A stretch of 64,000 nt of DNA, from the NCBI GenBank assembly GCA_038064915.1, contig JBBTSB010000006.1, positions 4,864 to 68,863 of the forward strand, read 5' to 3'. Below are positions 6,443 to 62,347 of this stretch, piece after piece. Source of the stretch: Patescibacteria group bacterium (lineage in GTDB: Bacteria; Patescibacteriota; Minisyncoccia; 2-02-FULL-40-12; IGHO2-01-FULL-4-A). Position numbers and translations under genes: made by a program. Within the stretch, counting starts at the first letter, position 1; every line of letters starts with the position of its first letter. The notes below the pieces were generated by a model, which saw only the letters and a list, made by a program, of their open reading frames with translations, made no database searches and was not told where the DNA came from.

Positions 6443-6478
6443 GTTCTGACTATTACACGATCGTGGTACAATCAGAAC
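6443..6478. repeat. 36-bp nested-palindrome repeat, copy 1 (GTTCTGACTATTACACGATCGTGGTACAATCAGAAC), overlapping a -10 box
   Basis: Outer inverted repeat GTTCTGA...TCAGAAC. Central perfect palindrome ACGATCGT. TACAAT at 6467..6472 lies 6 nt before the ATG at 6479. A second copy is at 7003..7038. Confidence 0.55.
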
Positions 6479-7002: not shown

Positions 7003-7038
7003 ATTCTGACTATTAAACGATCGTTGTGTGGTCAGAAC
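7003..7038. repeat. 36-bp nested-palindrome repeat, copy 2 (ATTCTGACTATTAAACGATCGTTGTGTGGTCAGAAC)
   Basis: About 27 of 36 positions match copy 1. Same outer inverted repeat and the same central ACGATCGT. Lies between two convergent genes. Confidence 0.55.
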
Positions 7039-8804
7039 GAGAGTTGCCAGACTTTATAGTCTTTGGAGAGCAACCAAATACTACCGTCAGCAGAGACGGT
7101 AATGTCTTTGAGTTCGCCGATGTTATCGAGCTTGTAGGTGGTCTGGAGGGAGCCGTTGGTTTTGTCCAGGGCGTAGAGGCGTTTCGTGACGGGATTGGCA
7201 AGATAGATCAGTGTCGCATCTTTTGAGGTCACGATTTGGTTCTGTTCATTGACCGGAAGGCTGGGGTCAAATTCTGACTCTTTTTTTCCTTTGAAATATG
7301 TTTCCACTTTTCCACCGTTGGTCAATACGAAAAGGTTGCCGTCAACGGCGATAGACTGTGCCACGCCTTCAGGAGTTCCCCAATCGGAACGCTTTGTGCC
7401 ACCAGCCAACGCATCCGCATATTTATACAAGTTGTTACCCGCGAGTGTATACAAATTTCCTTCGTACAAGGTGGCATCCGTTGCAGTGACGGGATCTTGC
7501 AATGTGTACGTTTTGTCTTTGACCGTTAATACTTCGGATCTATTGTACACCACCGAAGGTGTGTTGTTTTCGAATGCCAGTACTATACCTGTAGCTTCTG
7601 CAGTGCCTACTTCTTTTGGCACGAGAGAACTGACGTGGTCAACGCTATCCATAGATTTTTCAAGTTCTTTTCTTAGTTCCGAGATTTTCTCGCTTTCGAA
7701 GGGCTGAATTTGAGCCAGTGTTTGTTGGATGAGCGAGCGAGCTTCCTGGGTGTCATTTTGAGCCAGCTTCGCATGGATAGACTTGAGATTTTCAGCTCCG
7801 TTAGCATAGGCCGCCTTGAGACCCTTCGCATCACCACCTGATCGTATCAGGACAATGCTAAGCAGGGGGATAAAAACCACGAGGGCAATGATGATAAATC
7901 CCTTGAATCGTGAGTGAATCGGCAGACGATCCATACTTTTAAGTTTACCAGCAACATTGGAAAGTGAGCTGATAACATTACCTTTTTTAGAGACAGAAAG
8001 CTCAGCAGCGATAACACGCGGCTTCTCAGAAACTTGAGCTGTGCGACCGCCTGATACGGAATCAGCGGTCGGACCGCCGGGTTGTGATGCCAGCGTTGCT
8101 GTCGCAGGTACATCCAAGGGAATTTCTTTGATTTGCTCAATCGCAATATGAACGCCGCAACAAGTAAAGGTATCAAGATGTTCCGCCAATTGGGAGATTT
8201 TTTCCAAAAACTGTTCCTGGGGTTCTTTCACGAGCATCGTTTGCAGCATTTTTTCACGAGAGGTGATGGGGCGAGCGGGGTAGTAAGCAAATAGTTTATC
8301 ACCCGGCTGGAGTTTTCCCGAGATAATGTTAGAAAACTGTTGTTCGTCTTCGGCAGATTTCTGGAAGAGGGCAATGTTATTGAGAACGTCTATGTGTTCC
8401 CCATTTCTGGCAAGACCGACCTTGAATTTTCCCAATTTTGAAATATAGAGTTGATCTCCGGCGATTGCAGCAAGACCCAGGTTGAGAGCAAAAGATTTGT
8501 TTTTAAAAAAATCCTGAAGGATTTCATTGAGTTTTTTCAGGGTGCCTTCAAACGATTTTTTGGGATCTTGGCTTTTGAGTGCCTGCTCGGAATAGTATTC
8601 GCGCTTTGCTAGCGATGAAACCAGACTGATCACATACCCAAGATCTTCCTCGTCGTATTTTACGTGCCCAATGAGGTATAGTGAGCCAAGAGTTTTTTCC
8701 TGCGTGGTGGTCCCGGAATACGAAAGAACATCAACATGGGTATTGACTTCATCGGTCTTATAGAGTAATTCTTTAACGACGGGTTTGAGAGTGATTTTTT
8801 CCAT
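7032..8804 (-). CDS. Hypothetical single-pass membrane protein: N-terminal cytoplasmic domain (possibly PP2C/SpoIIE-like) and C-terminal extracellular beta-propeller-like repeats
   Basis: 590 aa. Central TM segment FIIIALVVFIPLLSIVLI. The C-terminus has repeated DGNLFVLTNGGKV / YALDKTNG-type beta-strand motifs. Confidence 0.35.
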   Translation of the reverse strand: MEKITLKPVVKELLYKTDEVNTHVDVLSYSGTTTQEKTLGSLYLIGHVKYDEEDLGYVISLVSSLAKREYYSEQALKSQDPKKSFEGTLKKLNEILQDFFKNKSFALNLGLAAIAGDQLYISKLGKFKVGLARNGEHIDVLNNIALFQKSAEDEQQFSNIISGKLQPGDKLFAYYPARPITSREKMLQTMLVKEPQEQFLEKISQLAEHLDTFTCCGVHIAIEQIKEIPLDVPATATLASQPGGPTADSVSGGRTAQVSEKPRVIAAELSVSKKGNVISSLSNVAGKLKSMDRLPIHSRFKGFIIIALVVFIPLLSIVLIRSGGDAKGLKAAYANGAENLKSIHAKLAQNDTQEARSLIQQTLAQIQPFESEKISELRKELEKSMDSVDHVSSLVPKEVGTAEATGIVLAFENNTPSVVYNRSEVLTVKDKTYTLQDPVTATDATLYEGNLYTLAGNNLYKYADALAGGTKRSDWGTPEGVAQSIAVDGNLFVLTNGGKVETYFKGKKESEFDPSLPVNEQNQIVTSKDATLIYLANPVTKRLYALDKTNGSLQTTYKLDNIGELKDITVSADGSIWLLSKDYKVWQLSF

Positions 8805-12076: not shown

Positions 12077-12469
12077 GTGAAAACGCACAAAAAGTCTCCC
12101 ATTCGTCGTTACGTGCAGGACGCGGGGAAGCTCGAAGAGCTAGAGCGGGATCTTCAAAGAGTCGAAGATCCCGCGACTCCTGAAGAGGACCGGAATCGCA
12201 TCCTCTCGAAGTTCCAAGAGATCTTCGAGATCGAAGCGTTCACGTTCAAGCGGGTTGCCGAACTCGCTCGCGAGGCGATCGCAACCTCGCGCCGCCGAAT
12301 GCTCCTCCTGCAACTTGTGGAGGGAATGGATGTGATCATTCGAGGGGTGAGCAGGCCGGTTCGGGTACTCGCCCTCGATCGCCACAAGGGTTTGCTCCTG
12401 GTGAAGCGTCCAGGTAAGCTAACCTGGGTCTCACCCGAAGAAATCAACAACATCATTCTCACGAGTTAG
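12077..12469 (+). CDS. Hypothetical protein between the two direct repeats; putative GTG start
   Basis: 131 aa. GGAGG lies 4 nt upstream of the GTG. GC-rich. Confidence 0.3.
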   Translation: MKTHKKSPIRRYVQDAGKLEELERDLQRVEDPATPEEDRNRILSKFQEIFEIEAFTFKRVAELAREAIATSRRRMLLLQLVEGMDVIIRGVSRPVRVLALDRHKGLLLVKRPGKLTWVSPEEINNIILTS

Positions 12470-12477
12470 GAGGGCCA

Positions 12478-12717
12478 ATGGCAGCGAAACCGAACGCGAT
12501 ATTCGGGCTCATCGAGCGGGCAGGGACGCCCCTCGAGCTCAAGAACATCAACCTCTATTTCTTGCAGGGCGACTGGAGCCTTGGTGATAGCGCCCTGATC
12601 TTCGAGGCGATCGAAAGAAGGGCACGTGAACTCCACGTGGAGGTCACGGAGTTCGTTCCTCCTCCGGAAGTCCGGAGCAGGGGTGATGACTCCCGCCCCA
12701 ACGACCAACGCGAGTAG
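12478..12717 (+). CDS. Small hypothetical protein in a GC-rich island; C-terminus DDSRPNDQRE is encoded by direct repeat 2
   Basis: 79 aa. RBS GGAGGG then ATG. Confidence 0.3.
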   Translation: MAAKPNAIFGLIERAGTPLELKNINLYFLQGDWSLGDSALIFEAIERRARELHVEVTEFVPPPEVRSRGDDSRPNDQRE

Positions 12718-12720
12718 CGG
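12685..12720. repeat. 36-bp direct repeat, copy 2
   Basis: See 12034..12069. Confidence 0.7.
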
Positions 12721-12849
12721 TCTGCCCCGCGCGGACCGCGCAGCACTAACAGAGACGGAGGTGCGGCGGCGCTAACCACGCGTTGCCCCCTCCGGTCATC
12801 AAACTCAACCCCAAGAAGGGGATTTTTATTTTCTATCGCCCACCTTACA

Positions 12850-12877
12850 CCCTCCCTCTTACCGATAAGAGGGAGGG
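12850..12877. repeat. GC-rich palindromic hairpin element, class 1 (CCCTCCCTCTTA-CCGA-TAAGAGGGAGGG)
   Basis: Perfect 12-bp stem with a 4-nt loop. Shares the 20-bp core CCCTCTTACCGATAAGAGGG with the reverse complement of 30902..30925. Flanked by inverted repeat CCTTACACCC / GGGTGTAAGG. Confidence 0.7.
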
Positions 12878-12892
12878 ACGGGGAGGGAGATA

Positions 12893-12996
12893 GTGGATAA
12901 CTGCCCCTTGCTCGGGTGTAAGGCAGTGGTGTATGATGGTCGAGTGGTGGTGAGAAGTGGATAGAAGTGGGGATAACCACCCCAATCTGTGGATAT
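12893..12996. promoter_or_regulatory. Cluster of DnaA-box-like 9-mers, all in one orientation, followed by an AT-rich stretch upstream of mraZ
   Basis: Three 9-mers each 8/9 against the TGTGGATAA consensus: GTGGATAAC at 12893..12901, TGGGGATAA inside TGGGGATAAC at 12969..12978, TGTGGATAT at 12988..12996. AT-rich TTTTATAAGTAAAAAATAG follows. Confidence 0.3.
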
Positions 12997-13063
12997 GTAC
13001 GAGCAAACAGCTGACCGGACCTGTTCTTTTATAAGTAAAAAATAGTTGGCTGTTTGCTCATAC

Positions 13064-13498
13064 ATGCTCATAGGGGAATACAAACATACGTTGGATCCCA
13101 AGAAACGCTTAGCTGTCCCCGCTAAATTGCGCAAAGAAGTGGGTGAGCGGGCGGTCCTTACGCGTGGATTGGAAAACTGTTTATTTCTTTTTTCTATGAA
13201 AGAGTGGGAAGTTTTGGCGGAGAAGATTAGTCAGTTGCCCATGGGTCAGAAGGATTCTCGTGGATTTGCACGATTGTTGCTTTCTGGAGCCAGTGAAGTC
13301 GAGTTGGATCAGTTGGGCAGGGTGTTAGTGCCGGACTATCTACGAGATTACGCAGGGCTCCAAAAAACAGTGATTGTGGCAGGAGTGGGGAAGAGGTTAG
13401 AAATATGGGATGAAGCAAAATGGAATGTGTATAAGCAGAAATTGGAAAGTGACGGAGATGCCATAGCAGAAAAGTTAGGTGAGATTGGCATGATCTGA
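13064..13498 (+). CDS. mraZ: Transcriptional regulator MraZ
   Basis: Start taken at MLIGEYKHTLDPKKRL. Two MraZ-type repeats. Heads the dcw cluster. Confidence 0.8.
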   Translation: MLIGEYKHTLDPKKRLAVPAKLRKEVGERAVLTRGLENCLFLFSMKEWEVLAEKISQLPMGQKDSRGFARLLLSGASEVELDQLGRVLVPDYLRDYAGLQKTVIVAGVGKRLEIWDEAKWNVYKQKLESDGDAIAEKLGEIGMI

Positions 13499-22546: not shown

Positions 22547-24400
22547 ATGGCAAAAATACTAGGAATCGATTTGGGAACGACAAACTCTGCGATGGCCATC
22601 GTCGAAGCCGGCCAGCCGAGGGTTCTGGAAAATAAAGAGGGTATGCGCACTACGCCGTCTATGGTGGCGGTAAAGGGCGCGGAACGGTACGTGGGAGTTA
22701 CGGCAAAGCGACAAGCGGTAACAAACCCAACGAATACCATCTTTTCAGTCAAGCGTCTCATTGGACGGCGCTTTAGTGATCCGGAAGTACAGCGCGATCA
22801 AAAACTCTTACCCTATGAGATTCGCAAAGGCCAGCACGACGATGTCGAGGTAAAACTTGGAGAAAAATGGATGAAGCCGGCAGAAATTTCGGCTATGGTT
22901 TTGCAAAAAATGAAGGCCGATGCGGAAGATAAACTTGGCGAAAAAATCACGGAAGCGATCATCACCGTACCTGCATACTTTGATGACTCACAACGCAAAG
23001 CTACAAAAGACGCAGGTGAAATTGCAGGACTTACCGTAAAGCGCGTGATCAATGAACCAACCGCGGCCGCGCTTGCGTACGGCTTTAACAAAAAAAAAGA
23101 CGAAAAAATCGTCGTCTATGATTTTGGTGGAGGTACGTTTGATATTTCGGTACTTGAGGTTTCAAGTGACACTATTGAAGTAAAAGCCACTGGCGGTGAT
23201 ACGCACCTGGGCGGCGATGATATTGATCAGCTGATCATCAATCACTTCATCGATGAGTTCAAAAAAGATCAGGGAATTGATGTCTCCAAAGATCGTCTTG
23301 TGGTCCAGCGCCTTAAAGACGCAGCTGAAAAGGCCAAGCATGAATTATCGAGCACGACTCAGACCGAAATCAATATCCCATTCCTTACGGCTGATGCCTC
23401 TGGCCCGAAGCACTTCAATCTGAACTTTACCCGTGCCAAGCTCGAATCCCTTACCCAGCCTCTCATCGACAAGTCCATTGAACTTACGAAAAAAGCGCTT
23501 GCTGATGCCAAGCTATCAACAAATCAGATTAATGAGGTTGTATTAGTAGGCGGCCAGACTCGCATGCCGGCAATTATTGAGGCAGTGAAGAAGCTTTTTG
23601 GCAAAGAGCCTCACAAAGATATCAATCCTGATGAAGTTGTTGCCGTTGGTGCGGCAATCCAGGGCGGTATCATGCAAGGCGACGTCAAAGACGTACTTTT
23701 GCTTGATGTCACGCCACTGTCACTCGGAATAGAGACTGCCGGCAACGTGATGACCAAGATGATAGAAAAAAATACTACGGTGCCGACAGCAAAGTCGCAG
23801 GTCTTTTCGACCTACTCCGACAATCAGCCGCATGTAGAAATACATGTATTACAGGGTGAGCGTGCTATGTCGGCGGACAACAAGACACTAGGCAAATTTA
23901 TCCTCGATGGCATTCCTCCTGCCCCCCGCGGCGTCCCACAGATCGAAGTCACCTTTGACATCGATGCAAATGGAATCTTGCACGTAAAGGCAAAAGATAA
24001 GGCGACGGGCAAGGAGCAAAGTATCCGTATTGAAGGCTCATCTGGAATCACTGACGAAGAGAAAAAGCGCATGATGGCTGATGCTGAAGCGCATGCGGCC
24101 GAAGACGCAAAGAAAAAAGAGCTCGTGGAAGCTCGCAATATGGCGGAGGCATTGGTATACTCGACGGAAAAGGCACTCAAGGATGCAGGTGATAAAGTCA
24201 GCGCCGATGATAAGAAGAATATCGAGGAAAAACTTGAGGCACTCAAGAAATTAAAGGACAGCGAGAACGTAGAAGAAATCAAAAAAGCCTCTGAAGAACT
24301 CTCGACTGCGGCGCAGAAAATAGGGGAGGCTATGTATAAGGCCCAACAGGCGCAAAAGCCAGAGGAGCCTAAAGTTGAAGAGAATCCACACCAAGAGTAA
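22547..24400 (+). CDS. dnaK: Chaperone DnaK (Hsp70)
   Basis: [20 protein letters not shown]; DLGGGTFD; substrate-binding domain; EEVD-less tail. Start adjusted to the MAKILG methionine. Confidence 0.9.
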
Positions 24401-24442
24401 CCCCCTCGAAGTCCCCCTTATAGATAAGGGGGAAGGGGGTTA
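24398..24442. repeat. Nested GC-rich palindromic element, class 2 (TAACCCCCT-CGAAGT-CCCCCTTAT-AG-ATAAGGGGG-A-AGGGGGTTA), probably also the dnaK terminator
   Basis: Inner stem CCCCCTTAT/ATAAGGGGG and outer stem TAACCCCCT/AGGGGGTTA. Same architecture as 41992..42036. Begins at the dnaK stop codon. Confidence 0.7.
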
Positions 24443-29965: not shown

Positions 29966-31303
29966 TTACACGACCGTGATTGGGTCTACGTCAATTTGCC
30001 AGTCGGGGGGGAGGTTACGCAGAAGGTTTAAAGTTTCAGGTTTAAAGTTTAAAGTGGGGGCGCTCTTCAGAAGTACATTCCAGACATAAAGTCCGCGTTC
30101 GCGGAAAATGAGGGCGGGGTAGGGGACGCCGCCGAGTTTCGTGGCCATGTTTTGTGCGACTTGTTTTGCGATTCTTGCGTCACGATTCTTATACGTAAGT
30201 TTTATGAGTTTCGTAAACGGGGGATAATCAAACTGTTTGCGGAACTCCAGCTCGCGCTTCCAAAACTCGTCTACGGTTCCCGTCGCGGCGGCTACGAGTG
30301 CCGGATCTTCGGGATTGTAGGTTTGGATGATCGTGCGTTCGGACATGGAGGCCAGGAGGAGGGTTTGTTTGAGGAGCTTCTCTTCAGCACTGTAATCAGG
30401 GATATTAATTAATGCATCTGCATTCATGATGCAGAGAAAAGGCACTTTAATGTTTTGATTAAAAATACTTTGCGTGGCAAGCAAAATTTGCCAGTCTTCA
30501 CCGATCTTCTTTGACTCCGAGGTAAGCTTCGCGATTTTTGGAGCTTTTAGATTTTGATAGTTAAAGAATTTGAGGAGTTCGGTTTCTACTTTTTCTATTC
30601 CTACGCCACGACCTTTCAAATTATATCCTTTGCACTTTGGGCATTGTTTTGGTTGTGGCACTTGGTAACCGCAATGGTGACACTCCAAATTTTGATGAAC
30701 AACTAACGATGCGGAGCAGCTGGGGCAGGTAAACATGTGGCCGCATGATTCACATCGTAGAAAATTTGCGTAGCCTTTGCGCGGGATGAAGATAATAATT
30801 TTATCGTAGGTTTGCAAAGCCTCTTTGAGATGACGAGAAAAAATAGAGTAGTTTGCATCGCGTATCTCTTTTCTCATGTCTACGATCCGTATCTCCCCCC
30901 GCCCCCTCTTATCGGTAAGAGGGGGAAGGTCCAGAATTGGACCTGGGGAGATATATTTCTTGAAGTTTTTCTCTTCTGGATGCAGGAAAACCGCTCGCAT
31001 AGTAAGACCGAGAGAGATGAGGTAGTAGTCAGAAAGCTCTTGGGCTTTTTTGATGTGCTCTCCGGTGACGTTTTTTTTGAGAACTTTATCGATTTTTTTG
31101 AGAGTAAAATCAGCCTGCTTTTTAAATTGCAGTTTGCGCTCGGCAAGTGAGGCGGAAGCGACCACGACTGCTTTGATTTTGCGATTGTGAAACAAAACCT
31201 GGACGACGGAACCAACCGGCAGGGGAGTAGAGTGGAAATAGCTCACGATTTGGGGTTGATTCCGGGGCAGGAAAACAAGGGGTATGACGTCCAAAATAAC
31301 CAT
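29966..31303 (-). CDS. priA: Primosomal protein N' (PriA)-like protein lacking helicase lobe 1 (no Walker A/B)
   Basis: N-terminus is the PriA 3'BD-like domain (PLPVGSVVQVLFHNRKIKAVVV). Cys-rich CxxC x4 region CESCGH..CPSC..CHHCGY..CPKC. Helicase lobe 2/C-terminal domain with IIIFIPRKGYANFLRC. No GxxGxGK(T/S) anywhere in 445 aa. Confidence 0.55.
   Translation of the reverse strand: MVILDVIPLVFLPRNQPQIVSYFHSTPLPVGSVVQVLFHNRKIKAVVVASASLAERKLQFKKQADFTLKKIDKVLKKNVTGEHIKKAQELSDYYLISLGLTMRAVFLHPEEKNFKKYISPGPILDLPPLTDKRGRGEIRIVDMRKEIRDANYSIFSRHLKEALQTYDKIIIFIPRKGYANFLRCESCGHMFTCPSCSASLVVHQNLECHHCGYQVPQPKQCPKCKGYNLKGRGVGIEKVETELLKFFNYQNLKAPKIAKLTSESKKIGEDWQILLATQSIFNQNIKVPFLCIMNADALINIPDYSAEEKLLKQTLLLASMSERTIIQTYNPEDPALVAAATGTVDEFWKRELEFRKQFDYPPFTKLIKLTYKNRDARIAKQVAQNMATKLGGVPYPALIFRERGLYVWNVLLKSAPTLNFKPETLNLLRNLPPDWQIDVDPITVV
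30902..30925. repeat. GC-rich palindromic hairpin element, class 1 (CCCCCTCTTA-TCGG-TAAGAGGGGG), in-frame inside priA
   Basis: 10-bp stem with a 4-nt loop. Its reverse complement shares 20 bp with the 12850 element. Encodes PPLTDKRGRG in the priA frame at the junction where the ATPase lobe is missing. Confidence 0.7.
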
Positions 31304-31317
31304 GGTATAATGCTACT

Positions 31318-32559
31318 ATGAACCCCGCAGAAATACGAGTCCGTTTTCCGCCCTCGCCCACGGGCTTTTTACACATAGGCAATATACGCACCTTTGTGTT
31401 TAATTGGCTATTTGCAAAACAAAACAAGGGCATGATTGTGCTGCGTATGGAGGATACCGATAGGGAACGGTCTGAAAAACATTTTGAAAAATTAATTATT
31501 GAGGATTTGAAGTGGCTCGGTTTGGATTATGATGAATTTGGTGGCCGCCAAAGCGAAAGAACGGACATTTACAACAAATACCTCAAGCAATTACTTGATT
31601 CGGGTGAGGCTTACGAAGATGACGGTGCAATAAAAATAAAAGTTGATACGGGTAAAACGATTATTTTTGATGATGTCATCCGAGGTCGTATAGAATTTGA
31701 TACAAAGCATGAAAAGGATTTTGTGATAGCGCGAAATCTCGACTCGCCGCTATATCACCTCGCAGTGGTAGTGGATGATTACGAAATGCGGATTTCACAT
31801 ATTATTCGTGGCGAGGATCATATTGCGAATACGGCAAAGCATATCTTACTTCAAGAGGCACTGGGATTTACTTCGCCGATCTATGCGCATTTGCCGCTGA
31901 TTCTTGGTTCTGACAAATCAAAGCTCTCCAAGCGTCATGGGGCAGTGGCACTCGATGAATATAAAGAGCAGGGCTTCCTACCTGATGCGATGTTTAATTA
32001 TCTTGCGATACTTGGCTATACGCCGTCGGCAGAAATTATTTCTCGGGAAGAACTCATCAAAGAATTTGAGCTTACCAAAATCCATAAAGCGGGCGCGGTG
32101 TTTGATATCAAGAAGCTGGAATGGATAAATGGAGAATACATAAAGAAAATGTCGAATGATGAACTGTTGGCGACGATCGGACAGAAGTATGAAAAGATAT
32201 TGCCGATGGTGCGAGAGCGGATGAAAAAAAAGAGCGATCTTGAAGAGTTTGATTTCTTCTTTGAAGCTCCGACGGTAGATCCTGAACTCTTGAAGTGGAA
32301 AAAAGCCAGCCTCGAAGAATCAAAAGCAATGCTTGCACAGGTGAAAGAAATAATAGAACAAACCGGTTTAGAAGATATACGTGCAAAATTGGATGCCATA
32401 GGGGCAGGGGATAGGGGACTCGTTTATTGGCCCTTTCGGGTGGCTTTGAGCGGCCGCAAGGCATCGCCTGATCCCGTAGATATTGCTATAATACTTGGTA
32501 AAGATGAAGTTCTGCGAAGAATTGAAAATGTAAATATCAAAGATCAAAATGACAACTAA
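31318..32559 (+). CDS. gltX: Glutamate--tRNA ligase
   Basis: PSPTGFLHIGN (HIGH motif) and KLSKR (KMSKS motif). 413 aa. Confidence 0.85.
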   Translation: MNPAEIRVRFPPSPTGFLHIGNIRTFVFNWLFAKQNKGMIVLRMEDTDRERSEKHFEKLIIEDLKWLGLDYDEFGGRQSERTDIYNKYLKQLLDSGEAYEDDGAIKIKVDTGKTIIFDDVIRGRIEFDTKHEKDFVIARNLDSPLYHLAVVVDDYEMRISHIIRGEDHIANTAKHILLQEALGFTSPIYAHLPLILGSDKSKLSKRHGAVALDEYKEQGFLPDAMFNYLAILGYTPSAEIISREELIKEFELTKIHKAGAVFDIKKLEWINGEYIKKMSNDELLATIGQKYEKILPMVRERMKKKSDLEEFDFFFEAPTVDPELLKWKKASLEESKAMLAQVKEIIEQTGLEDIRAKLDAIGAGDRGLVYWPFRVALSGRKASPDPVDIAIILGKDEVLRRIENVNIKDQNDN

Positions 32560-33814
32560 AAATTCAAGAATTATTTATTTTGCACTGTCATTTTTCATTT
32601 TGATATTTGCATTTTCAATTTTACCTGTGCGCGCCGATGAAATTGAGGACAAGATCGCTGAACTGCGTGAAAAAATCGAAGAGCTCACCAAACAAGCCGA
32701 AATGTATCGAGGAAATGTGCTTGAGAAACAAAAGGAAGCCGACACACTTAAGCGCCAAATTGATATTCTCAACAACCAAATCAAGCGTTTGGAAACGGAA
32801 ATCGATATCACCGAAAATCGCATTTTATCTTCAGAAATGGAGATTGGCGATCTACAGGAGAAAATTTTTGATGCACAACATGATATCGAATTCACACGAG
32901 CTACTATCGGACAAATGATGACTGACCTGGACGAAAGGGATCGACTCAATATGCTTGCCACCATCATCAAGAATCCAAATTTGTCAGGATTTACAAATGA
33001 AGCGCAGCGTGCAGAGACCCTTAATGGGCGATTGAACCAATTACTGGTTCAAATTAAAGATCAAAAGATACAGCTTGAGGAAAGGAAAAAAAGTGTTGAA
33101 CAAAAAAAAGTGGAGTTGGAAAAACTCAATGATCGCCAGGTCAACCAACGTGCCTCACTATCGGGAACTAAATCCTCCAAAAATAGACTTCTGGTCGATA
33201 CCAAGGGCCAGGAAAGTAAATATCAGCAACTATTGAGTTCTGTAGAAAAACAAAAAGCTGCATTCTTTGCCGAACTCCAGGGTATGGAAAACAGCGCAAT
33301 CGCAAACGGAACCGTTATTGTACACGTTAAAGCGACGGCCGTCCCTCCCCGTGGCACAAAAATTTTTCAGGAGCCCTATCATGATAAGTTTTATACCACC
33401 CAAGGATATGGGATGACCTCCTATGCGAAAAGGGGAGCGTATGGAGGGGCGATTCATAATGGGCGTGACGTTGCTAGCGGATGCAGTAGTGCCATATATG
33501 CGATTGGAAATGGTGTTGTGCTTGCGAGCGGATATAATGCAGGTTTTGGAAATTGGATTGCAATACGGCACGACGCTGGCGGGGGAATGGTCAGTGTGTA
33601 TGCGCACATGGTGCGTGGGACAACGCTTAGCAACGGAAAACTCGTGACTACAGAAACTGTGCTTGGCTATGAAGGCACCACCGGAACCTCTACGGGATGC
33701 CATTTGCATCTTTCCCTCTATCGAGAGTTTTTCACTTATATAAATACAAAAAACGATCAACTCTACTTCAATTACGCAAACGGATCTTTGAATCCCGTTG
33801 ACTACATTAAATAG
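32549..33814 (+). CDS. M23 family peptidoglycan hydrolase with an N-terminal coiled coil (EnvC-like)
   Basis: Signal/TM, long coiled-coil region, C-terminal LytM domain (HNGRDV..., GNWIAIRHDAGGGMVSVYAHM, GTSTGCHLHL). Confidence 0.75.
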   Translation: MTTKNSRIIYFALSFFILIFAFSILPVRADEIEDKIAELREKIEELTKQAEMYRGNVLEKQKEADTLKRQIDILNNQIKRLETEIDITENRILSSEMEIGDLQEKIFDAQHDIEFTRATIGQMMTDLDERDRLNMLATIIKNPNLSGFTNEAQRAETLNGRLNQLLVQIKDQKIQLEERKKSVEQKKVELEKLNDRQVNQRASLSGTKSSKNRLLVDTKGQESKYQQLLSSVEKQKAAFFAELQGMENSAIANGTVIVHVKATAVPPRGTKIFQEPYHDKFYTTQGYGMTSYAKRGAYGGAIHNGRDVASGCSSAIYAIGNGVVLASGYNAGFGNWIAIRHDAGGGMVSVYAHMVRGTTLSNGKLVTTETVLGYEGTTGTSTGCHLHLSLYREFFTYINTKNDQLYFNYANGSLNPVDYIK

Positions 33815-34118
33815 ATGTGGTCTTATCTCCTACCTGTGGATAACTATTATAAAGGTTGTCGCACAATGTAGGCAGGGAAGGGGTACAAATGTCGAATGAC
33901 GAATTCCTAATGACGAATCAATTTCCTAATGTTTCAATAATTTAAACATTGATTCGACATTCATCATTCGAAATTAGTCATTGCTGGCGATCTGTACATC
34001 CTAGGTTATATCCATATCCAGTACTCACCAGCTTAGCATATGTCGCATAAGTATCATTGTGCGACGCATAGCAATAGCTCGAAACCTCTATTCCCCATCG
34101 ATGTGATACAATAGAGCG

Positions 34119-34916
34119 ATGTATTATAGAGATCTGAATGAATTCAAATCCTCCAACGGGTATGAGATAGATGGGATGTGGTACCCCAGGGTCACAGCTA
34201 TCGTGTCTATAAAGTCAAAACCAGCCCTTTATAAATTTTACGCGGATCAGAAAAGCTTTGCTTCTGCGGAAGCCATGAAAAATAAGTCTGCCGAAGAGGG
34301 AACTCTGGTCCACGAGCTTGCGGAGGGCATTTTGGCGGGGCAATCCCCTGTCATTCCAGATTCCTACGCGGCTCTTATGGACGCATTTCATGTATTTTTA
34401 CAGCAGCATGATATTGTTCCGCGCAGTATTGAGCGCAAAATCATCAGTCACAAGCATGGTTATGCAGGGACGATTGATGTACTGGCTGAAGTGGATGGGA
34501 AAATAGGTGTTTTGGATATAAAGACTTCACAGGCAATCTATCGCGACTATGGAATCCAAACGGCCGCGTATGTGGAGGCGCTTCATGAGGAAGAAAATAT
34601 GCCTTCGCTCACGCGGTGGATTTTGCGCTTGGACCAGGCGCGCCTCTGTATGAACGGTTGTGGGGCGCGGATGCGGGACAAAGGCGGGACAGAAAAAATA
34701 AAAAATGGGTATGGATATAAGGCTCGTAGTTGCAGTCACGTCTGGGGTGCATCGGTCGGCGATGTGGAACTCAAAGAACTCCCCGACCTCGCACATGATA
34801 CCCAGGCCTTCTTGGCCTCCAAAACCCTCTGGGAATGGGAACACCATGACTGGCTGCGTCATCTGCCACGTATCAACGCTGACAATTCCCTGCCAGAGAG
34901 TACCCCGCCGCTATAG
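34119..34916 (+). CDS. PD-(D/E)xK nuclease, RecB/Cas4-like family
   Basis: Nuclease motifs: E in GTLVHELAEG, D in GYAGTIDVL, D-x-K in VLDIKTS, QxxxY in QAIYRDY / QTAAY. C-terminal C-x3-C...C-x-H cluster. Confidence 0.5.
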   Translation: MYYRDLNEFKSSNGYEIDGMWYPRVTAIVSIKSKPALYKFYADQKSFASAEAMKNKSAEEGTLVHELAEGILAGQSPVIPDSYAALMDAFHVFLQQHDIVPRSIERKIISHKHGYAGTIDVLAEVDGKIGVLDIKTSQAIYRDYGIQTAAYVEALHEEENMPSLTRWILRLDQARLCMNGCGARMRDKGGTEKIKNGYGYKARSCSHVWGASVGDVELKELPDLAHDTQAFLASKTLWEWEHHDWLRHLPRINADNSLPESTPPL

Positions 34917-35262
34917 CGGCGGATTCGTTGGGGAAGGTAATTTTGTTTTTTTCGGCAATGCGCTTGGCGCCAGAGCACCAGGTAAAGTGGTAGAGGTGGC
35001 TGGAGGCGGCTTTGGAGGCAACGACAGTCTGGTCTTTAGCGGTCGGACCGCTAGATTCCGAATTAAGCGGTCCGACCGCTTGTCCGCTTGCATTCGGGCT
35101 CGAGATCGTCAGCGGTAGCTTAGCTACTTGATTCCCTACGGACATGCGGCCAAGGTTGAAGCTGATTATTGTTATGGAAATGATGGCTATGCCAAGGGTG
35201 AGTTCAGAGTGATAGACTTTGACGAATTCTTTAATCTTTGCTATCATATAGTAAGTATACAA
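34873..35262 (-). CDS. Membrane-anchored protein with a C-terminal Ada-type zinc-binding domain
   Basis: N-terminal TM LGIAIISITIISF. The C-terminal YHFTWCSGAKRIAEKNKITFPNESAAIAAGYSLAGNC matches the Ada_Zn_binding pattern YH...C...F...E.A..AGY..C..C. Confidence 0.45.
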   Translation of the reverse strand: MYTYYMIAKIKEFVKVYHSELTLGIAIISITIISFNLGRMSVGNQVAKLPLTISSPNASGQAVGPLNSESSGPTAKDQTVVASKAASSHLYHFTWCSGAKRIAEKNKITFPNESAAIAAGYSLAGNCQR

Positions 35263-40170: not shown

Positions 40171-41560
40171 AGACTGCGGCGAAGATTAAAAACGCTCGTT
40201 CATCAAAGAGTGCGGCATCGGTCAATAAATATCCATAGATCCACGGCAACATAATCAGCAATGCAGAGCCATATAGTGTAGATCGAAGCTCCCACGCACG
40301 GCGGAGAGGAATCCAGAGTAGCCACAGAAAGAGTATCAACGCAGGAATCCCAATTTCCGCGGCGACATGCAGGTAGACATTGTGCGCGGAGGAGCCGGCC
40401 TTGGCAAGTTCAATATCTTGTTGTAAGACTACGGGAAAATTTCCAATGCCAACTCCAAGCAATGGGTGCTGAACAATGGATCGCAGTGAAGCTTTCCAGA
40501 TTGCTATGCGAAGAGCGTTGGATGTCTCACCAAAATTTAAAATAGAACGGATACGACTACCCAGCGTGGCATTCCAGCCAAGACCGAATTGCGGCGTGGC
40601 GGAAAGCGGATACACAAAAGCAAACAGGAGTACGAATGCTACGAGCCACGGGGCGACTTTTCGAAATGAGCCTCGTAGCCATATCATGGCGATCATCGCC
40701 GCCAGAGTCATCACCCATCCTGCCAGCCACATACCACGGGTGTTGCTAAGAATTACTGCTAGGAAAGCGATAGGGATGAGGATGGAGGGCCAGTGGCGTT
40801 TGGTGTCGAGTTTTGCAAATATCGCCGGCAGTGCTAGCAATACAAACATCGGAAACGTGTGTGAATCAGTGAACAGCGAAAACATCCGTAAATTTATATT
40901 GCCGAACGTATTATATGTAAACCACGTATTTCCCTGCTCTACCGCTATCCGGCACCACTCCATTCCGAATTGCCGGCATTGTGCTCCCCAGCCCCAAAAG
41001 TCTACGAATTGATAAATATCTCCAAAATAGGTGCTAGCCAATTGCAAAAATCCGACCGCGAGCACAATAAAAAGAGGCGGAATAAAAGCGTTGACAATAC
41101 GACTTAGGTGTTGGACACCTAAGTGACTGATTACTATCGGCACCATGAGCAAGTTTGCAAAATAAATAATGCGTAGCACTGAAGCGGTTTTGTCCTGTGC
41201 TACAAATATAGAAAGAATAGAAATTAATAATAAAAGAATTAATAAAATTGAAAATTTGGATTTGATTGGAAATTGAAAATTGAAAATTGAAAATTTCGCA
41301 ATAATAAATTTTATGAAAATTATTATTGCGAGTACCCGCCACGTATTAAAATTATCAAAACTCGCCGTGAGTGGCAGTGCAATAAAAAGCGGAATAGATC
41401 GCACAAAAAGCACGGTTGCATCTTCTAGTGATGCAAAAAGCGTATAGATTATCAAAATACCAGCCAGCACAAACGCAAACCATCTCGGCAGTGCGCCAAA
41501 GATAATCAGAAAAAATAATACGACTTCTACGGCGTATACGCGATTTACATATTTCGACAT
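40133..41560 (-). CDS. O-antigen polymerase/ligase-like (Wzy/WaaL family) polytopic membrane protein
   Basis: 475 aa. More than ten TM helices, with a large periplasmic loop near the C-terminus. Sits inside the glycosyltransferase cluster. Confidence 0.55.
   Translation of the reverse strand: MSKYVNRVYAVEVVLFFLIIFGALPRWFAFVLAGILIIYTLFASLEDATVLFVRSIPLFIALPLTASFDNFNTWRVLAIIIFIKFIIAKFSIFNFQFPIKSKFSILLILLLLISILSIFVAQDKTASVLRIIYFANLLMVPIVISHLGVQHLSRIVNAFIPPLFIVLAVGFLQLASTYFGDIYQFVDFWGWGAQCRQFGMEWCRIAVEQGNTWFTYNTFGNINLRMFSLFTDSHTFPMFVLLALPAIFAKLDTKRHWPSILIPIAFLAVILSNTRGMWLAGWVMTLAAMIAMIWLRGSFRKVAPWLVAFVLLFAFVYPLSATPQFGLGWNATLGSRIRSILNFGETSNALRIAIWKASLRSIVQHPLLGVGIGNFPVVLQQDIELAKAGSSAHNVYLHVAAEIGIPALILFLWLLWIPLRRAWELRSTLYGSALLIMLPWIYGYLLTDAALFDERAFLIFAAVYGTLSINQSRLS
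41269..41295. repeat. Heptanucleotide tandem repeat: GAAATT followed by (GAAAATT)x3
   Basis: Near-perfect 7-bp unit repeated about 3.9 times inside the Wzy-like CDS, which is on the opposite strand. Confidence 0.8.
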
Positions 41561-42498
41561 AATTGCAAAAATCTATCCGTATGAGCTTTCCAGGAAAAAT
41601 TATTTGTGAGTGCAGGTTTTGGCATAGCCAATCCCCTGCTAATTCCATCAGCAATGCCATCAACCGTTGGCTGGCAATAAATTGCATAATCGCCAAGTAG
41701 CTCATGAGCTACGTCCGTATCGGCAACTACGGGTCTCACTCCCCTAGCCAGAGCTTCCAACGGCGGCAATCCAAATGCTTCCGTATCGGATACATACACA
41801 AATAGTCTGGCATTTTTATATAATTCTTCAAGCTTCTCATCAGTTACTCTCTCATAATATTCCACATCCAAATTTAATTTTGGATTATACTTATCTACAC
41901 CGACAACGATCAATTTAACTCCTAGTTTTTTGCAGGCCAAGATCGTCTCTCGTGCATGACGTCGTGGGAACATCTGACCAACGTATAATACATAACCCCC
42001 TTCCCCCTTATCATAAGGGGGACTAGAGGGGGTTATCCCCAGATAATTTACAAAAATTCTTCTGCTATCTATGCCAAATAATTTTGCCACGTTCTTGCCA
42101 GAAGTTTTAGAATAGACGCTAATCATAGTTGCCTTGCGGGCCGCGTGATTACTAAAGATTTTGTAGGCCAAGCGATATCTAAAAGGCAAATCTTTGCCGT
42201 GCATTTCGCGATGCAAGTCCTCCGTGAGCGCAACAATCGTCTTACAAAAAATGCCATAAGGTAGCATGTAATTGGGAAAAAAGACGATGTCGGGTTTCGT
42301 GAGCCAAATCTTGATAGGCAAAATAATATAATAGTACAAACTGAAACTCGGTATCTTGCCTTTATAATAATAAATAAATTTAAACTCTTCTGTTTTGGGC
42401 AGGTTTTTGATGAGCTCTTTGACCGTGCGGCCGATCCCCCACGAATCGCCTTCACCCGACTCGCATTCGATACCGATTTTTATCATAATCTCTAGCAC
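41545..42498 (-). CDS. Glycosyltransferase family 4 (GT-B fold)
   Basis: C-terminal EAFGLPPLEALARGVRPVVADTDVAHELLGD is the typical GT4 E-x7-E region. Confidence 0.7.
   Translation of the reverse strand: MLEIMIKIGIECESGEGDSWGIGRTVKELIKNLPKTEEFKFIYYYKGKIPSFSLYYYIILPIKIWLTKPDIVFFPNYMLPYGIFCKTIVALTEDLHREMHGKDLPFRYRLAYKIFSNHAARKATMISVYSKTSGKNVAKLFGIDSRRIFVNYLGITPSSPPYDKGEGGYVLYVGQMFPRRHARETILACKKLGVKLIVVGVDKYNPKLNLDVEYYERVTDEKLEELYKNARLFVYVSDTEAFGLPPLEALARGVRPVVADTDVAHELLGDYAIYCQPTVDGIADGISRGLAMPKPALTNNFSWKAHTDRFLQLCRNM
41992..42036. repeat. Nested GC-rich palindromic element, class 2 (ATAACCCCC-TT-CCCCCTTAT-C-ATAAGGGGG-ACTAGA-GGGGGTTAT), in-frame inside the GT4 gene
   Basis: Inner and outer stems as in the dnaK-proximal copy. 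Translated in the GT4 frame it gives ..SSPPYDKGEGGYVLYVG.., an insertion just before the conserved GT4 core. Confidence 0.7.
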
Positions 42499-43216
42499 CT
42501 TGCAGAATTGCTTTTGACTCTTCTATATTACGACCAAGTAAAATTTTTATGCGTTGTTTAAGCTTAATCCAAAAACTCCATATCGGCAACGCGAGACGGA
42601 CATACCAGGTACCGTGGGTTTTGTTGAGAAGCAGTGCGTTGCGTGTGTGGTAGTAGAGTAGATTAGCAGAGCCAAGGGTGGAGGTAGTGGCAGAAGTCGC
42701 ATGCATAAATTGAGCGGTTGAACCGCTCAATTTGAAGCCGGCTTTTTGGGCTCGCACACAAAACTCGACATCTTCGTAGTACAAAAAATATCTCTCATCA
42801 AAGAAGCCAATTTTACTAAAAACTTCTTTTTTAATTAATAAAACAGCTCCCGAAAGATAGTCAAAGCCAAAGACTCTCCCCTGCTCCAGGCCGACGATGT
42901 CCGCATCGCCGGATGGCATTTCTTTGAGAACGACATCGTTATTGAGAATTAATATTTTTTCCGCGCCATGCTCGAGCGCGTATTTAATGCCAATGTTGTT
43001 GCCACCGGAATAGCCGAGATTTTTGGGAGAGTTTAAGAGTTTAAAGTTTAAAGGTTTAAACGTTTCAAGCCAATACTCAACGTTTTTCAGATGCTCTACG
43101 TCGGATCCGTTGTCGACGACGATCACGTCGGCATTTAGAGGCCGGAGAGACTCCAGGCACGCTAGCGTACGACCTGATTGATTATATTGGAGAACGACGA
43201 TTGAAAGTTTTGCCAT
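42452..43216 (-). CDS. Glycosyltransferase family 2
   Basis: LSIVVLQYNQ, VVDNGS, YSGGNNIG, YYEDVEF (DxD-like). Confidence 0.7.
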   Translation of the reverse strand: MAKLSIVVLQYNQSGRTLACLESLRPLNADVIVVDNGSDVEHLKNVEYWLETFKPLNFKLLNSPKNLGYSGGNNIGIKYALEHGAEKILILNNDVVLKEMPSGDADIVGLEQGRVFGFDYLSGAVLLIKKEVFSKIGFFDERYFLYYEDVEFCVRAQKAGFKLSGSTAQFMHATSATTSTLGSANLLYYHTRNALLLNKTHGTWYVRLALPIWSFWIKLKQRIKILLGRNIEESKAILQGARDYDKNRYRMRVG

Positions 43217-60676: not shown

Positions 60677-60748
60677 GCCCCTGTAGTTCAATGGATAGAA
60701 CAGGAGACTTCTAAGCTCTTAATAGAGGTTCGATTCCTCTCGGGGGCA
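60677..60748 (+). tRNA. tRNA-Arg (anticodon TCT)
   Basis: Acceptor GCCCCTG/CGGGGGC, D-arm GTTC AATGGATA GAAC, anticodon loop CTTCTAA, T-arm AGAGG TTCGATT CCTCT. Confidence 0.75.
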
Positions 60749-60752
60749 CATG

Positions 60753-60823
60753 CGGGCTGTAGTGTAACGGTAGCACGAGACGTTTGGGACGTTTTAGTCC
60801 GAGTTCGAATCTCGGCAGCCCGA
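60753..60823 (+). tRNA. tRNA-Pro (anticodon TGG), C1-G72 acceptor
   Basis: Acceptor CGGGCTG/CAGCCCG, anticodon stem AGACG/CGTTT with loop TTTGGGA, T-arm CCGAG TTCGAAT CTCGG. Its 3' end overlaps the left inverted repeat by 3 nt. Confidence 0.8.
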
Positions 60824-62347
60824 CAAAAAGCAACGTTCGGAAAAATCAGGCTCCGCACTCCGCCGCGCCGAAGGCGCGAATGGAATGGTGGGGGTGAATC
60901 CGGCGAGACTGGAAGCCAAAAATTGAAAGGGTGGGGTGAGAGTCTGGGAGAGGGAGCGGTCGGTAAGTTTTGGGTTCGTTCCGAGTTTTGGCAAAAGTTG
61001 CCTCATCTCGTGATAATTTTCGGAGGAAGCCAGGAAACTGGCTTTTTTCGTGTCCAAAATGAATTGTCTGACGGGTTCGAGCGGATTTGCGGTTGTTTGT
61101 CCATGATCTTGTTTTTGGTCGGCAAGGGAAACTTTCTGTTTCAGCAGCTCTTCCTTTTTAGCAAGATAACTTTCCTTGGGAATATCACCGTCAATATATG
61201 CGCTAACTAATTTATCCAGTTTCTCTTGCGTCTCATGTTGTTTCGCTTTGATGTCTCGGACGAACGACTGTGATGAGTGGACTGATTCCTTTTCTTCCTT
61301 ATCTACTTCCTTGAGCATCCAATCAGTCCACTCATCGGGGAGCGCGATAGATTGAAGCCGTGCCTTAATTTGGAGGACAAGATCTTTTTCTTGGAGGTAC
61401 TTTTGATTACAGAGGCCGCGCTTCTTGGTGCATCGGTAATACCGATAGATACCGCCATGAGCACCCTTTGCCCATTGAGCGGTGATTGGAGAATTACATT
61501 CACCACAGGTCATCATCCCGATAAAGGGAAAGTCATGGCGAATCTTTGATTTGCGCGGCCGGGATCTATCCTTCAATATATCTTGCACGGCTTCAAAAGT
61601 TGTATGATCGAGAATCGGCGGAAACTTTCCTTCGTAGTATTCACCTTTATGAGCGATCAACCCAAGGTACGCTTTGTTCGAGAGCATAATCCTCACATTC
61701 GCTTTTGCAAGTGGCGTTCGGTGTCTAGCCTCAATACCGTAGCCCGCCAAAAACTCTCCCATTGATTCGAGAGTGTACTTTCCGGTCGCATATTCCTTAA
61801 AAGCGCGAAGGATAATTTTGGATAGTGTCGGATGTGGATCAATCGTTCGCGTCTTTGGATTGTTCACGTAGCCAAAGGGGGCTTTGGTGAGCCATTCTCC
61901 GCGACGGAGTTTTTGGCGGATACCACGCTTTACGTTTTCAGAAAGATTATCTGAATAATATTTGGATTGACCGAACGCCACTTGGAGCATGAACAATCCT
62001 TGGGGTGTAGGTTCGAACCAAAATGTCGGAAATCGCAAAGAAACTATCTTGGTGGTATCTATGGCGTAGATGACTTGCCCACCATCAACGGAGTTACGAG
62101 CTAACCTATCTGGATGCCAAGCGAGCAAGCCGACAGGTTCACTTGATGAGGCAACTTTTGCCATCATTTGATTAAAGATTTCTCTGCCTGGTTTCTTTGC
62201 GCTTTTCGACTCGATGAAAGTCTCGGCAATCAAAATATTTTCTCTCTTCGCGTATTCAGTGAGTTCAGCAAGTTGAGCTTCAATACTCATTACTTGCCGT
62301 TCCTCATCTTCCGTAGATTTACGAGCGTAGAGAAAATATTTTGTCAT
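60794..62347 (-). CDS. Large serine recombinase (resolvase/invertase catalytic domain, recombinase domain, zinc ribbon, coiled coil)
   Basis: N-terminus YARKSTEDEERQVMSIEAQ (catalytic Ser region). DRLARN. Zn ribbon CGECNSP...YYRCTKK..C. The C-terminal 57 or so codons lie inside the left inverted repeat. The ORF reads through into the tRNA-Pro 3' end. Confidence 0.8.
   Translation of the reverse strand: MTKYFLYARKSTEDEERQVMSIEAQLAELTEYAKRENILIAETFIESKSAKKPGREIFNQMMAKVASSSEPVGLLAWHPDRLARNSVDGGQVIYAIDTTKIVSLRFPTFWFEPTPQGLFMLQVAFGQSKYYSDNLSENVKRGIRQKLRRGEWLTKAPFGYVNNPKTRTIDPHPTLSKIILRAFKEYATGKYTLESMGEFLAGYGIEARHRTPLAKANVRIMLSNKAYLGLIAHKGEYYEGKFPPILDHTTFEAVQDILKDRSRPRKSKIRHDFPFIGMMTCGECNSPITAQWAKGAHGGIYRYYRCTKKRGLCNQKYLQEKDLVLQIKARLQSIALPDEWTDWMLKEVDKEEKESVHSSQSFVRDIKAKQHETQEKLDKLVSAYIDGDIPKESYLAKKEELLKQKVSLADQKQDHGQTTANPLEPVRQFILDTKKASFLASSENYHEMRQLLPKLGTNPKLTDRSLSQTLTPPFQFLASSLAGFTPTIPFAPSARRSAEPDFSERCFLSGCRDSNSD
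60821..60965. repeat. Left copy of a 145-bp inverted repeat
   Basis: Reverse complement of 62361..62505 with about 95% identity (differences are confined to two short patches). Confidence 0.85.

Follow-up and report, generated by a model that had tools for sequence, protein, structure and literature searches.

Two described groups of bacterial repeats resemble the sequences reported here. RPE-1 and similar Rickettsia palindromic elements (RPEs) are about 100-150 bp long and add 30-50 amino acids (aa). RPEs were reportedly described by Ogata et al. in 2000. Repetitive extragenic palindromes (REPs) tagged with GTAG or CGTC have stems of 5-13 bp, occur as dimers and clusters, and can provide stop codons from their ends (Di Nocera et al. 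2013, PMC3733652). Their intragenic units are thought to sit in linkers, and CGTC REPs have no known transposase (PMC3733652). We analyzed a 64 kb stretch (the window) of a metagenome-assembled genome (MAG) of a Patescibacteria bacterium, a member of the Candidate Phyla Radiation (CPR); our census of copies in this genome covers these 64 kb. CPR genomes are tiny, gene-dense and usually described as repeat-poor. The window has a GC content of 46.6%, and about 93% of it falls within open reading frames (ORFs). It carries a family of short hairpins, two of which lie in frame inside the genes for PriA and a family-4 glycosyltransferase (GT4). With moderate confidence, we interpret them as a dispersed family of short palindromic DNA repeats that resemble REPs and bacterial interspersed mosaic elements (BIMEs), have intragenic units and, inside genes, are RPE-like.

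Hairpin elements in the window

A first-pass annotation of this DNA had reported four related palindromes, and direct reading recovered matching strings at all four positions. Two form class 1: 12850-12877 reads CCCTCCCTCTTA-CCGA-TAAGAGGGAGGG, and 30902-30925 reads CCCCCTCTTA-TCGG-TAAGAGGGGG. Their kinship is borne out by a 20-nt core, CCCTCTTACCGATAAGAGGG, common to the 12850 copy and the reverse complement of the 30902 copy. The two class 2 copies (24398-24442 and 41992-42036) are nested palindromes, as had been proposed, with an inner stem (T)CCCCCTTAT/ATAAGGGGG(A) and an outer stem TAACCCCC/GGGGGTTA. The copy 3' of dnaK and the copy in the GT4 gene are identical at 42 of 45 positions. Because this identity includes the unpaired spacers TCGAAGT/TCTAGT and AA, we conclude that these two copies share an origin and are not convergent.

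The four elements are far beyond chance. The motif CCCCCTTAT occurs four times in the window, always in inverted pairs, against 0.24 expected, and CCCTCTTA occurs five times against 1.28 expected. Thirteen perfect hairpins (stem of at least 10, loop of at most 12) are present, compared with 0-1 in dinucleotide shuffles. The elements also fold as anticipated, with energies of -12 to -18 kcal/mol as DNA (z -2.8 to -5.0) and -27 to -41 kcal/mol as RNA (z -2.7 to -4.5). Their contrast in GC content with the surrounding sequence is present but modest (51-62% in the elements).

Each unit is a perfect stem of 10-12 bp with a loop of 1-4 nt. The 5' arm is a pyrimidine run (C3-7, at times broken by T, then TTA, TTAT or TTAC), and a complementary purine run forms the 3' arm. 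In most cases, one or two units are wrapped in a second stem that pairs a C-run with a G-run, such as TAACCCCC...GGGGGTTA in class 2, TATCTCCCC...GGGGAGATA in PriA and GATCCCCC...GGGGGATC in other lineages. All of the approximately 30 stems in the CPR loci are perfect Watson-Crick helices with zero G.T pairs. Element lengths range from 24 to 64 nt and encoded peptides from 8 to 21 aa. The intragenic copies keep the reading frame, and their Pro/Gly-rich peptides (PPYxKGG, PLTxKRG) lie in inter-domain loops.

Non-coding DNA makes up only about 7% of the window yet holds two of the four copies (p about 0.02-0.05). One is the 12850 hairpin, which together with a trailing G-run, AC-GGGGAGGGAG, spans 12850-12889 and lies about 170 nt upstream of mraZ. 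The other ends 14 nt ahead of the next gene (GTG at 24457). The first-pass annotation placed this copy immediately after the dnaK stop codon. It is indeed intergenic, but the stop codon TAA (24398-24400) supplies the element's own first three bases. Stable hairpins, one of them directly after dnaK, could be ordinary intrinsic terminators or attenuators. We consider this very improbable. Neither intergenic copy is followed by a T-run, terminator and promoter scans at 12850 and 24398 called nothing, and the other two copies sit mid-gene in the coding sequences (CDSs) of essential genes. Isolated Firmicutes matches of the hairpin are ordinary terminators and look different, with an A-run, hairpin and T-run and no flanking C/G runs. 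Rfam searches returned only tRNAs for the window at the gathering threshold, only noise for 12300-13200 at E<=1, and only tRNAs for eight multi-copy loci at E<=0.1.

The surroundings of the 12850 copy have features of their own. Its 3' arm and tail (12871-12887) form GGGAGGGACGGGGAGGG, a canonical G-quadruplex motif, and the same motif, as GGGAGGGccGGGGAGGG, closes the composite element in other lineages. From its G3-N1-2 runs, this segment is possibly a G-quadruplex or triplex switch. The hairpin is housed in a GC-rich island upstream of mraZ (12470-13045, 57-60% GC), whose sole ORF is a 79-aa orphan without a Pfam family; a search of 1.8 billion representatives returned no real homologs.

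Copies in the priA and GT4 genes

The 30902 copy lies inside priA and is read through in frame as ...LPPLTDKRGRGE..., as annotated. The host gene (29966-31303, minus strand) codes for a short PriA of 445 aa (Pfam PriA_3primeBD, Zn_ribbon_PriA and PriA_C), which combines the 3'BD, a Cys-rich Zn ribbon and the C-terminal domain and has no DEAD/helicase lobe 1. About 20 relatives share this conserved short form (442-497 aa); CPR homologs at a greater distance are 600-750 aa long. The element separates the N-terminal domain from the remainder and falls between Pfam domains. The annotated hairpin is real, but it is part of a larger 64-nt three-way structure (30890-30953). Here, the outer stem TATCTCCCC/GGGGAGATA surrounds the class 1 hairpin and a second hairpin, AGGTCCA-GAAT-TGGACCT (30927-30944), which employs the codons of conserved G-P and L-D residues. 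The composite folds as RNA into a three-way junction of -41.5 kcal/mol (z -4.45).

The 41992 copy lies inside the GT4 gene (41545-42498, minus strand), which was assigned from Pfam Glycos_transf_1 and its homologs and sits in an envelope cluster, murA-mreB-GT4-GT2-GT4-Wzy. In the sense of the gene the element reads ATAACCCCC-TCTAGT-CCCCCTTAT-G-ATAAGGGGG-AA-GGGGGTTAT, and the predicted in-frame read-through as ...ITPSSPPYDKGEGGY... (residues ~156-170) was confirmed. In an AlphaFold2 model (AF2; predicted local distance difference test, pLDDT, of 86), residues 151-168 form a coil between two Rossmann-like domains, and pLDDT falls to 65 at 161-170. In a PDB profile alignment, the solved GT4 C-domain starts directly after the element segment. 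On this model, the peptide encoded by the element is predicted to lie in an inter-domain loop.

Family members in relatives and other lineages

We compared the window with a set of loci (L001 etc.) from related groundwater CPR contigs; approximately 1.16 Mb of loci were searched for partner genes. Further family members are found in the linker of a paralogous GT4, in Wzy_C (L009), in a GT2 gene and downstream of dnaK, and most copies in these contigs are intragenic, in coding linkers. The window's own paralogous GT4 has no hairpin; those of L001, L003 and L006 carry family members in the linker. Counting the window, a family hairpin is found at the PriA site in about 5 of 21 sequences. Downstream of dnaK, the window has a family hairpin; of the three related genomes examined, L151 and L152 have one as well and L127 has none. 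L151 (610-760) and L152 (9630-9760) share a conserved non-coding stretch of about 130 nt downstream of dnaK, consisting of the family hairpin and then a convergent-gene terminator.

Classes 1 and 2 are often paired in relatives, about 13 nt apart, and occur together within one outer stem both there and in other lineages. This co-occurrence upholds the annotation's view of a real, related family, as does the finding of copies both between genes and in frame within them. Clusters are seen in L116, a Jorgensenbacteria MAG with 8 hairpins in 1.3 kb, and pairs in L006 and L009. L116 contains a composite, TAACCCCTCC-hairpin-hairpin-GGGAGGGGTTA, which lies in frame within a GT2 gene and also surrounds a DUF559-like ORF.

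We scanned genomes, one per species, with the pattern CCCCCTTAT-N1-3-ATAAGGGGG and found at least 117 loci. Among the matches listed, copies number in the dozens in a few MAGs with differing phylum labels; these copies are mostly intergenic and built as GATCCCCC-class 2-class 1-GGGGAGGGATC. A metagenome scan for the TAACCCCC-type nested form added in-frame copies in a hybrid sensor kinase (Bacteroidota type) and in PurQ. The kinase copy lies in the HATPase domain, where 126 residues are matched to 109 profile positions. The PurQ copy adds a net 19 aa against PDB 3d54: its first hairpin aligns over native residues (TP......KGE), and its second is a net addition. In other hosts, loci L134 and L139 have net insertions. 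The family is present in other lineages as well and is not peculiar to the one studied here. Since some of the MAG labels are doubtful, we limit this claim to "other lineages" and give no list of phyla.

One multi-copy MAG, CAZOBD01 (L010-L126, e.g. L029, L054 and L043), is labelled Hyphomicrobiales and has Bacteroidota-like proteins; it contains mosaic arrays of the composite hairpin element alternating with a conserved AT-rich module of about 100 nt.

Other collections gave nothing comparable. A scan of viral contigs yielded 10 matches, which were terminator-like or chance and all lacked C/G-run flanks. Searching a plasmid collection by blastn with a 77-nt composite and the 54-nt window element gave no match, to which the low-complexity filter may have contributed. 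A full-text literature search for the exact motifs, and for CPR together with REP or MITE (miniature inverted-repeat transposable element), found nothing relevant.

Linker lengths

The first-pass annotation asked whether orthologs would reveal the segments of roughly 8-15 aa in the two host proteins to be lineage-specific insertions. No such gain was found in the window genes. Between the conserved LG and Y[IV]LYVGQ motifs, the GT4 linker has 14 aa in the window and 14-17 aa in hairpin-free homologs (~50% identity). The PriA linker between GPxLD and IxIVDMR has 12 aa, compared with 11-12 aa in hairpin-free orthologs. In the closest PriA ortholog (74% identity), whose linker falls in the same 11-12 aa range, the linker DNA is an unrelated AT-rich stretch with no family hairpin. 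The hairpin-free orthologs have a different peptide, and the motif recurs elsewhere; the opposite of either result would have refuted the annotation's reading. Net additions do occur in some relatives, both in PriA (P0129, +9 aa; P0136, +11 aa) and in GT4 (P0010, P0005 and P0006). In-frame insertion thus stands in part: the copying (42/45), the loop location and the patchy presence at the PriA site support it, and the missing net gain of 8-15 aa in GT4 and PriA does not.

Length neutrality, perfect stems and flanking C/G runs together suggest another idea, that the family spreads by length-neutral, microhomology-guided overwriting instead of insertion. A nascent strand ending in a C- or G-run would switch template to another copy or to the opposite arm, copy 30-45 nt and return at the second run. 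A Pro...Gly linker would be swapped for a perfect palindrome, and its length would not change. This scheme accounts for the unchanged length of the window GT4 and PriA linkers despite elements of 45 and 36 nt, for the near-baseline length of single-hairpin linkers in the paralogous GT4, and for the first PurQ hairpin, which aligns on native residues even though the second is a net addition. It also fits the perfect complementarity of all stems, the C/G runs flanking every unit and the fact that neither transposase nor target duplication was found. We nevertheless regard it as doubtful. Hairpin-free PriA orthologs have no C-run/G-run microhomology, net insertions exist (P0129, P0136, P0010, the paralogous GT4 of L006 and the kinase), and template switching between distant loci at such a frequency has no citable precedent. 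The linker alignments are, moreover, uncertain at 50% identity.

Conservation at the nucleotide level

The GT4 gene of the window and its L001 ortholog share 71% nucleotide identity outside the element, with 46% identity at third positions. Inside the element, nucleotide identity rises to 93% and 14 of 15 third positions match; by a simple calculation, at least 14 matches in 15 at a rate of 0.46 has P ~2e-4. In L003 and L006, only 4 of 51 element positions differ. Two of these differences turn the pair at the base of the stem from A-T (L003) to G-C (L006) by way of Thr>Ala and Ser>Pro. At the apex, the window and L001 have a T-A pair, and L003, L006 and L007 have C-G. These compensatory changes were read directly from ortholog sequences, as MAFFT had aligned the GT4 elements out of register for the counting of pairs. 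PriA in the window and L128 retains the stem with a 1-nt loop difference, but the 3' arm is read in another frame (KRGRGE vs IRGGQGA), and the shift is offset by a compensating indel downstream. The intergenic hairpin and G-run are identical at 38 of 38 positions in L151 and L152, beside a protein that is just 52% identical.

Judging from these comparisons, the DNA (or RNA) palindrome is what is maintained, not the peptide. Either a DNA-level process or selection maintains the copies intact. The intragenic copies do encode linker-suited, P/G-rich peptides, and one could suppose that linkers need Pro-Pro...Gly-Gly and that the palindromes are a by-product of CCC and GGG codons. This reading is hardly credible. 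Two of the four window copies are intergenic, the third codon positions are conserved at 14 of 15 sites, and PriA orthologs and other hosts translate the same DNA in different frames (PPYDKG vs SPLIYKGG). Hairpin-free orthologs carry quite different peptides, and motif counts exceed all shuffles. A constraint on the peptide is contradicted by the frame, third-position and count results.

Origin and maintenance of the copies

Copies have been made from other copies, are dispersed over unrelated sites and genomes, have a patchy distribution and are maintained at the DNA level. If the elements are repeats of the REP/BIME kind, as we favor, their active form would be the hairpin, as single-stranded DNA or RNA. 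New copies could arise through a trans-acting, hairpin-recognising enzyme, either similar to REP-associated tyrosine transposases (RAYTs) or HUH enzymes or of another type, or through microhomology-guided template switching at C/G runs. Within genes, copies would persist only where a flexible linker tolerates them. Resident copies probably gained, or always had, a cis function that preserves them; candidates are an RNA 3'-end or processing structure and a translation pause at a domain boundary.

A number of results weigh against a repeat family of this kind. The window holds just 4 copies in 64 kb, and its two intragenic copies add no net length. No transposase was found among the Pfam-surveyed window ORFs (roughly 55 of 78), including no Y1_Tnp match that would indicate a Y1/HUH transposase, nor in the ~1.16 Mb of loci. 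Among the surveyed ORFs, one gene alone is of mobile type; it encodes a large serine recombinase and lies 18 kb away from the nearest element. When the ORFs lying up to 400 nt from 127 hairpins were clustered, no gene family recurred. None of the window or ortholog copies that we read has an adjacent target-site duplication or a GTAG/CGTC tag; the flanks are C-runs and G-runs. The comparison set lacks a closely related pair of filled and empty sites, and insertion was not seen directly. Taxon labels of some multi-copy MAGs look unreliable, the "Hyphomicrobiales" one having a GC content of 38-42%. The strong sequence conservation exceeds what is predicted for a purely selfish resident repeat, as does the occupancy of the GT4 linker by a palindrome in 9 of 9 close orthologs (67-79% identity). 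These palindromes belong to at least three sequence families. Six of the nine are of the C-run family. L005 and P0009 have instead a palindrome of a second family (described below), AGAGGTGAAACCTCT-13-AGAGGTTTCACCTCT, which is also found intergenically in L127, and in L008 the site holds a structured insert of 125 nt (-29 kcal/mol, z -3.9).

Candidate partners and related mechanisms were tried and rejected. For an IS200/RAYT-type partner, tblastn of IS200 TnpA against the 1.16 Mb of loci gave a single match; it is unrelated and lies in a cyanobacterial MAG, some 4.9 kb away from a hairpin. A DUF559-like endonuclease ORF in L116 (1103-1462) is bracketed by family hairpin composites (1017-1664), but tblastn found none in other loci or in the window. 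An IS630-like duplication of a TA target fails because excising the element with one TA breaks the frame and deletes the linker. Readings as attC-like sites, DNA uptake sequences or phase-variation tracts were dismissed because the 9-mers are confined to inverted pairs, the runs are not long enough and some of the copies are located in CDSs.

The strongest rival is that the hairpins are host-selected, cis-acting RNA or DNA structures at domain boundaries and gene ends and not selfish repeats. They might pause the ribosome for co-translational folding, protect or process mRNA 3' ends, or exert control around stop codons. No other 15-codon stretch of the GT4 gene is as conserved between the window and L001 as the element, and a hairpin held at the nucleotide level across saturated divergence is not expected of passive selfish inserts. 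The near-identity of the L003 and L006 elements, the invariant intergenic copy of L151 and L152, and the compensation of stem changes despite their amino-acid cost point the same way. So do the strongly folding palindromes of differing families at one linker in all nine GT4 orthologs, the recurrence of the hairpin 3' of dnaK and the recruitment of codons for invariant residues by the PriA structure. Most PriA orthologs, however, have no hairpin at the site, nor does the window's paralogous GT4. All stems are perfect Watson-Crick helices without G.T pairs, which is unusual for selected RNA structures. The unrelated host sites (a kinase ATPase loop, a PurQ loop and intergenic arrays), with dozens of copies per genome elsewhere, resemble repeat spread. 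We judge host selection possible but rather unlikely; it is compatible with a repeat origin through domestication and may hold alongside the REP-like reading.

A broader statement, which we offer only tentatively, is that the hairpins are not passive. They would be either (a) selected structures at domain boundaries and stop codons or (b) products of length-neutral, microhomology-guided overwriting of linker DNA. Under (a), a translation pause or RNA-processing signal would be written into the linker codons of housekeeping genes in gene-dense CPR genomes. Under (b), if true, the mode of propagation would be one not described for REP, RPE or MITE elements.

Comparison with described repeats

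We compared the family, read as REP/BIME-like repeats, with known systems. Like REPs (20-40 nt, stem 5-13 bp, loop 2-20 nt), the units are short stem-loops, here with stems of 10-12 bp and loops of 1-4 nt. In both, units occur as singles, dimers and mosaics, their ends can provide a stop codon, and some are intragenic, in linkers or loops. REPs are predominantly extragenic, mostly downstream of genes, with a minority of intragenic units; here half of the window copies, and most copies in related contigs, are intragenic. Copy number varies from 4 in the window through clusters in relatives (L116, L006 and L009) to dozens in other MAGs. Unlike REPs, the units have neither tag, their stems are homopyrimidine/homopurine C/G runs nested in an outer C-run/G-run stem, and they contain no G.T pairs. 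No RAYT of the kind associated with GTAG REPs was seen in the partial sequence examined. The host is, moreover, a CPR bacterium with very little intergenic space, and orthologous copies are conserved well above neutral sites.

The likeness to RPEs that the first-pass annotation proposed holds for location and fails for size. As with RPEs, the palindromes are found between genes and in frame in functional genes (here GT4 and PriA, both conserved in relatives). The encoded peptide lies in a surface or loop position and does not destroy the protein, as suggested by the modelled GT4 coil and by the element's place between Pfam domains in PriA, and the elements are present at orthologous sites in related species. 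At 24-64 nt and 8-21 aa, however, they are not 100-150 nt elements, they have no sequence similarity to RPEs, and they are not confined to one genus. The window copies involve no net insertion; a net gain is seen only in some relatives and other hosts.

Bacterial MITEs such as Correia/NEMIS, the Coxiella QMITEs and Nezha (PMC10969869, PMC2229807) are likewise small, non-autonomous repeats with inverted ends that can reside in frame in genes and fold as RNA. The elements described here are much shorter, and the entire element is a hairpin and not a pair of terminal inverted repeats (TIRs) around a core. The outer stem of 8-9 bp could pass as TIRs, but it has no flanking direct duplication, and in the loci examined we found no related full-length insertion sequence and no recurrent ORF near the 127 hairpins. 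Mitochondrial GC clusters, double-hairpin elements, repetitive hairpin-forming elements and coding palindromes (PMC2800124, PMC6649704) are also GC-rich hairpins that spread in compact genomes, some within CDSs with both arms translated. Those are organellar and differ in sequence, with no sign of relationship. Because the family has no GTAG/CGTC tag, is not 100-150 bp long and has no TIRs or target-site duplication, we have not filed it as a member of the REPs, RPEs or MITEs.

Other palindromes and neighboring features

A second palindrome family, AGCGGT-NNN-ACCGCT, occurs 6 times in the window against 0.05 expected, often as two units 12-13 nt apart that make a larger inverted repeat. Its window copies are at 4631-4673, 35038-35080, 42713-42727 and 8064-8078. 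In relatives it is found at L001 10794-10835; L127 1688-1729 and 5807-5848; L128 6117; L129 4086-4132; L009 2746; L151 582-606; and L005 2340-2366. Copies lie in frame in YceG/MltG (peptide KPLNSGLSGFTAK), in a GT2 gene and in ORF 34873-35262. A variant, AGAGGT..ACCTCT, occupies the GT4 linker of L005 and P0009.

The serine recombinase gene noted above (60794-62347, minus strand; Resolvase, Recombinase and Zn_ribbon_recom) adjoins genes for tRNA-Arg and tRNA-Pro (60677-60824), and this junction may mark the border of an integrated element. ORF 6479-7000, with a PaaX_M/Cas2-like domain, lies between two 36-nt palindromes that resemble each other (TTCTGACTATTA.ACGATCG...; 6443-6478 and 7004-7037). 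An M23 peptidase gene has long, imperfect, AT-rich inverted repeats (arms of 35-44 nt, 74-80% complementarity) at its start (32520-32620) and just beyond its end (33885-33982).

Implications

The elements have practical consequences. They produce P/G-rich "inserts", spurious small ORFs and breaks in MAG assemblies, and they are possible strain markers. The same architecture in other lineages points to a widespread, uncatalogued class of repeats. The value of the present case lies in its CPR host, in essential-gene linkers occupied by several palindrome families, and in a pattern of conservation suggestive of a function or of an unusual way of spreading. Conserved at the nucleotide level and with compensatory changes, the hairpins are a candidate cis-regulatory structure within CDSs. 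Palindromic repeats inside essential genes (those for PriA, envelope glycosyltransferases and MltG) would represent selfish or regulatory DNA that persists despite scarce intergenic space and, in doing so, reshapes protein linkers.

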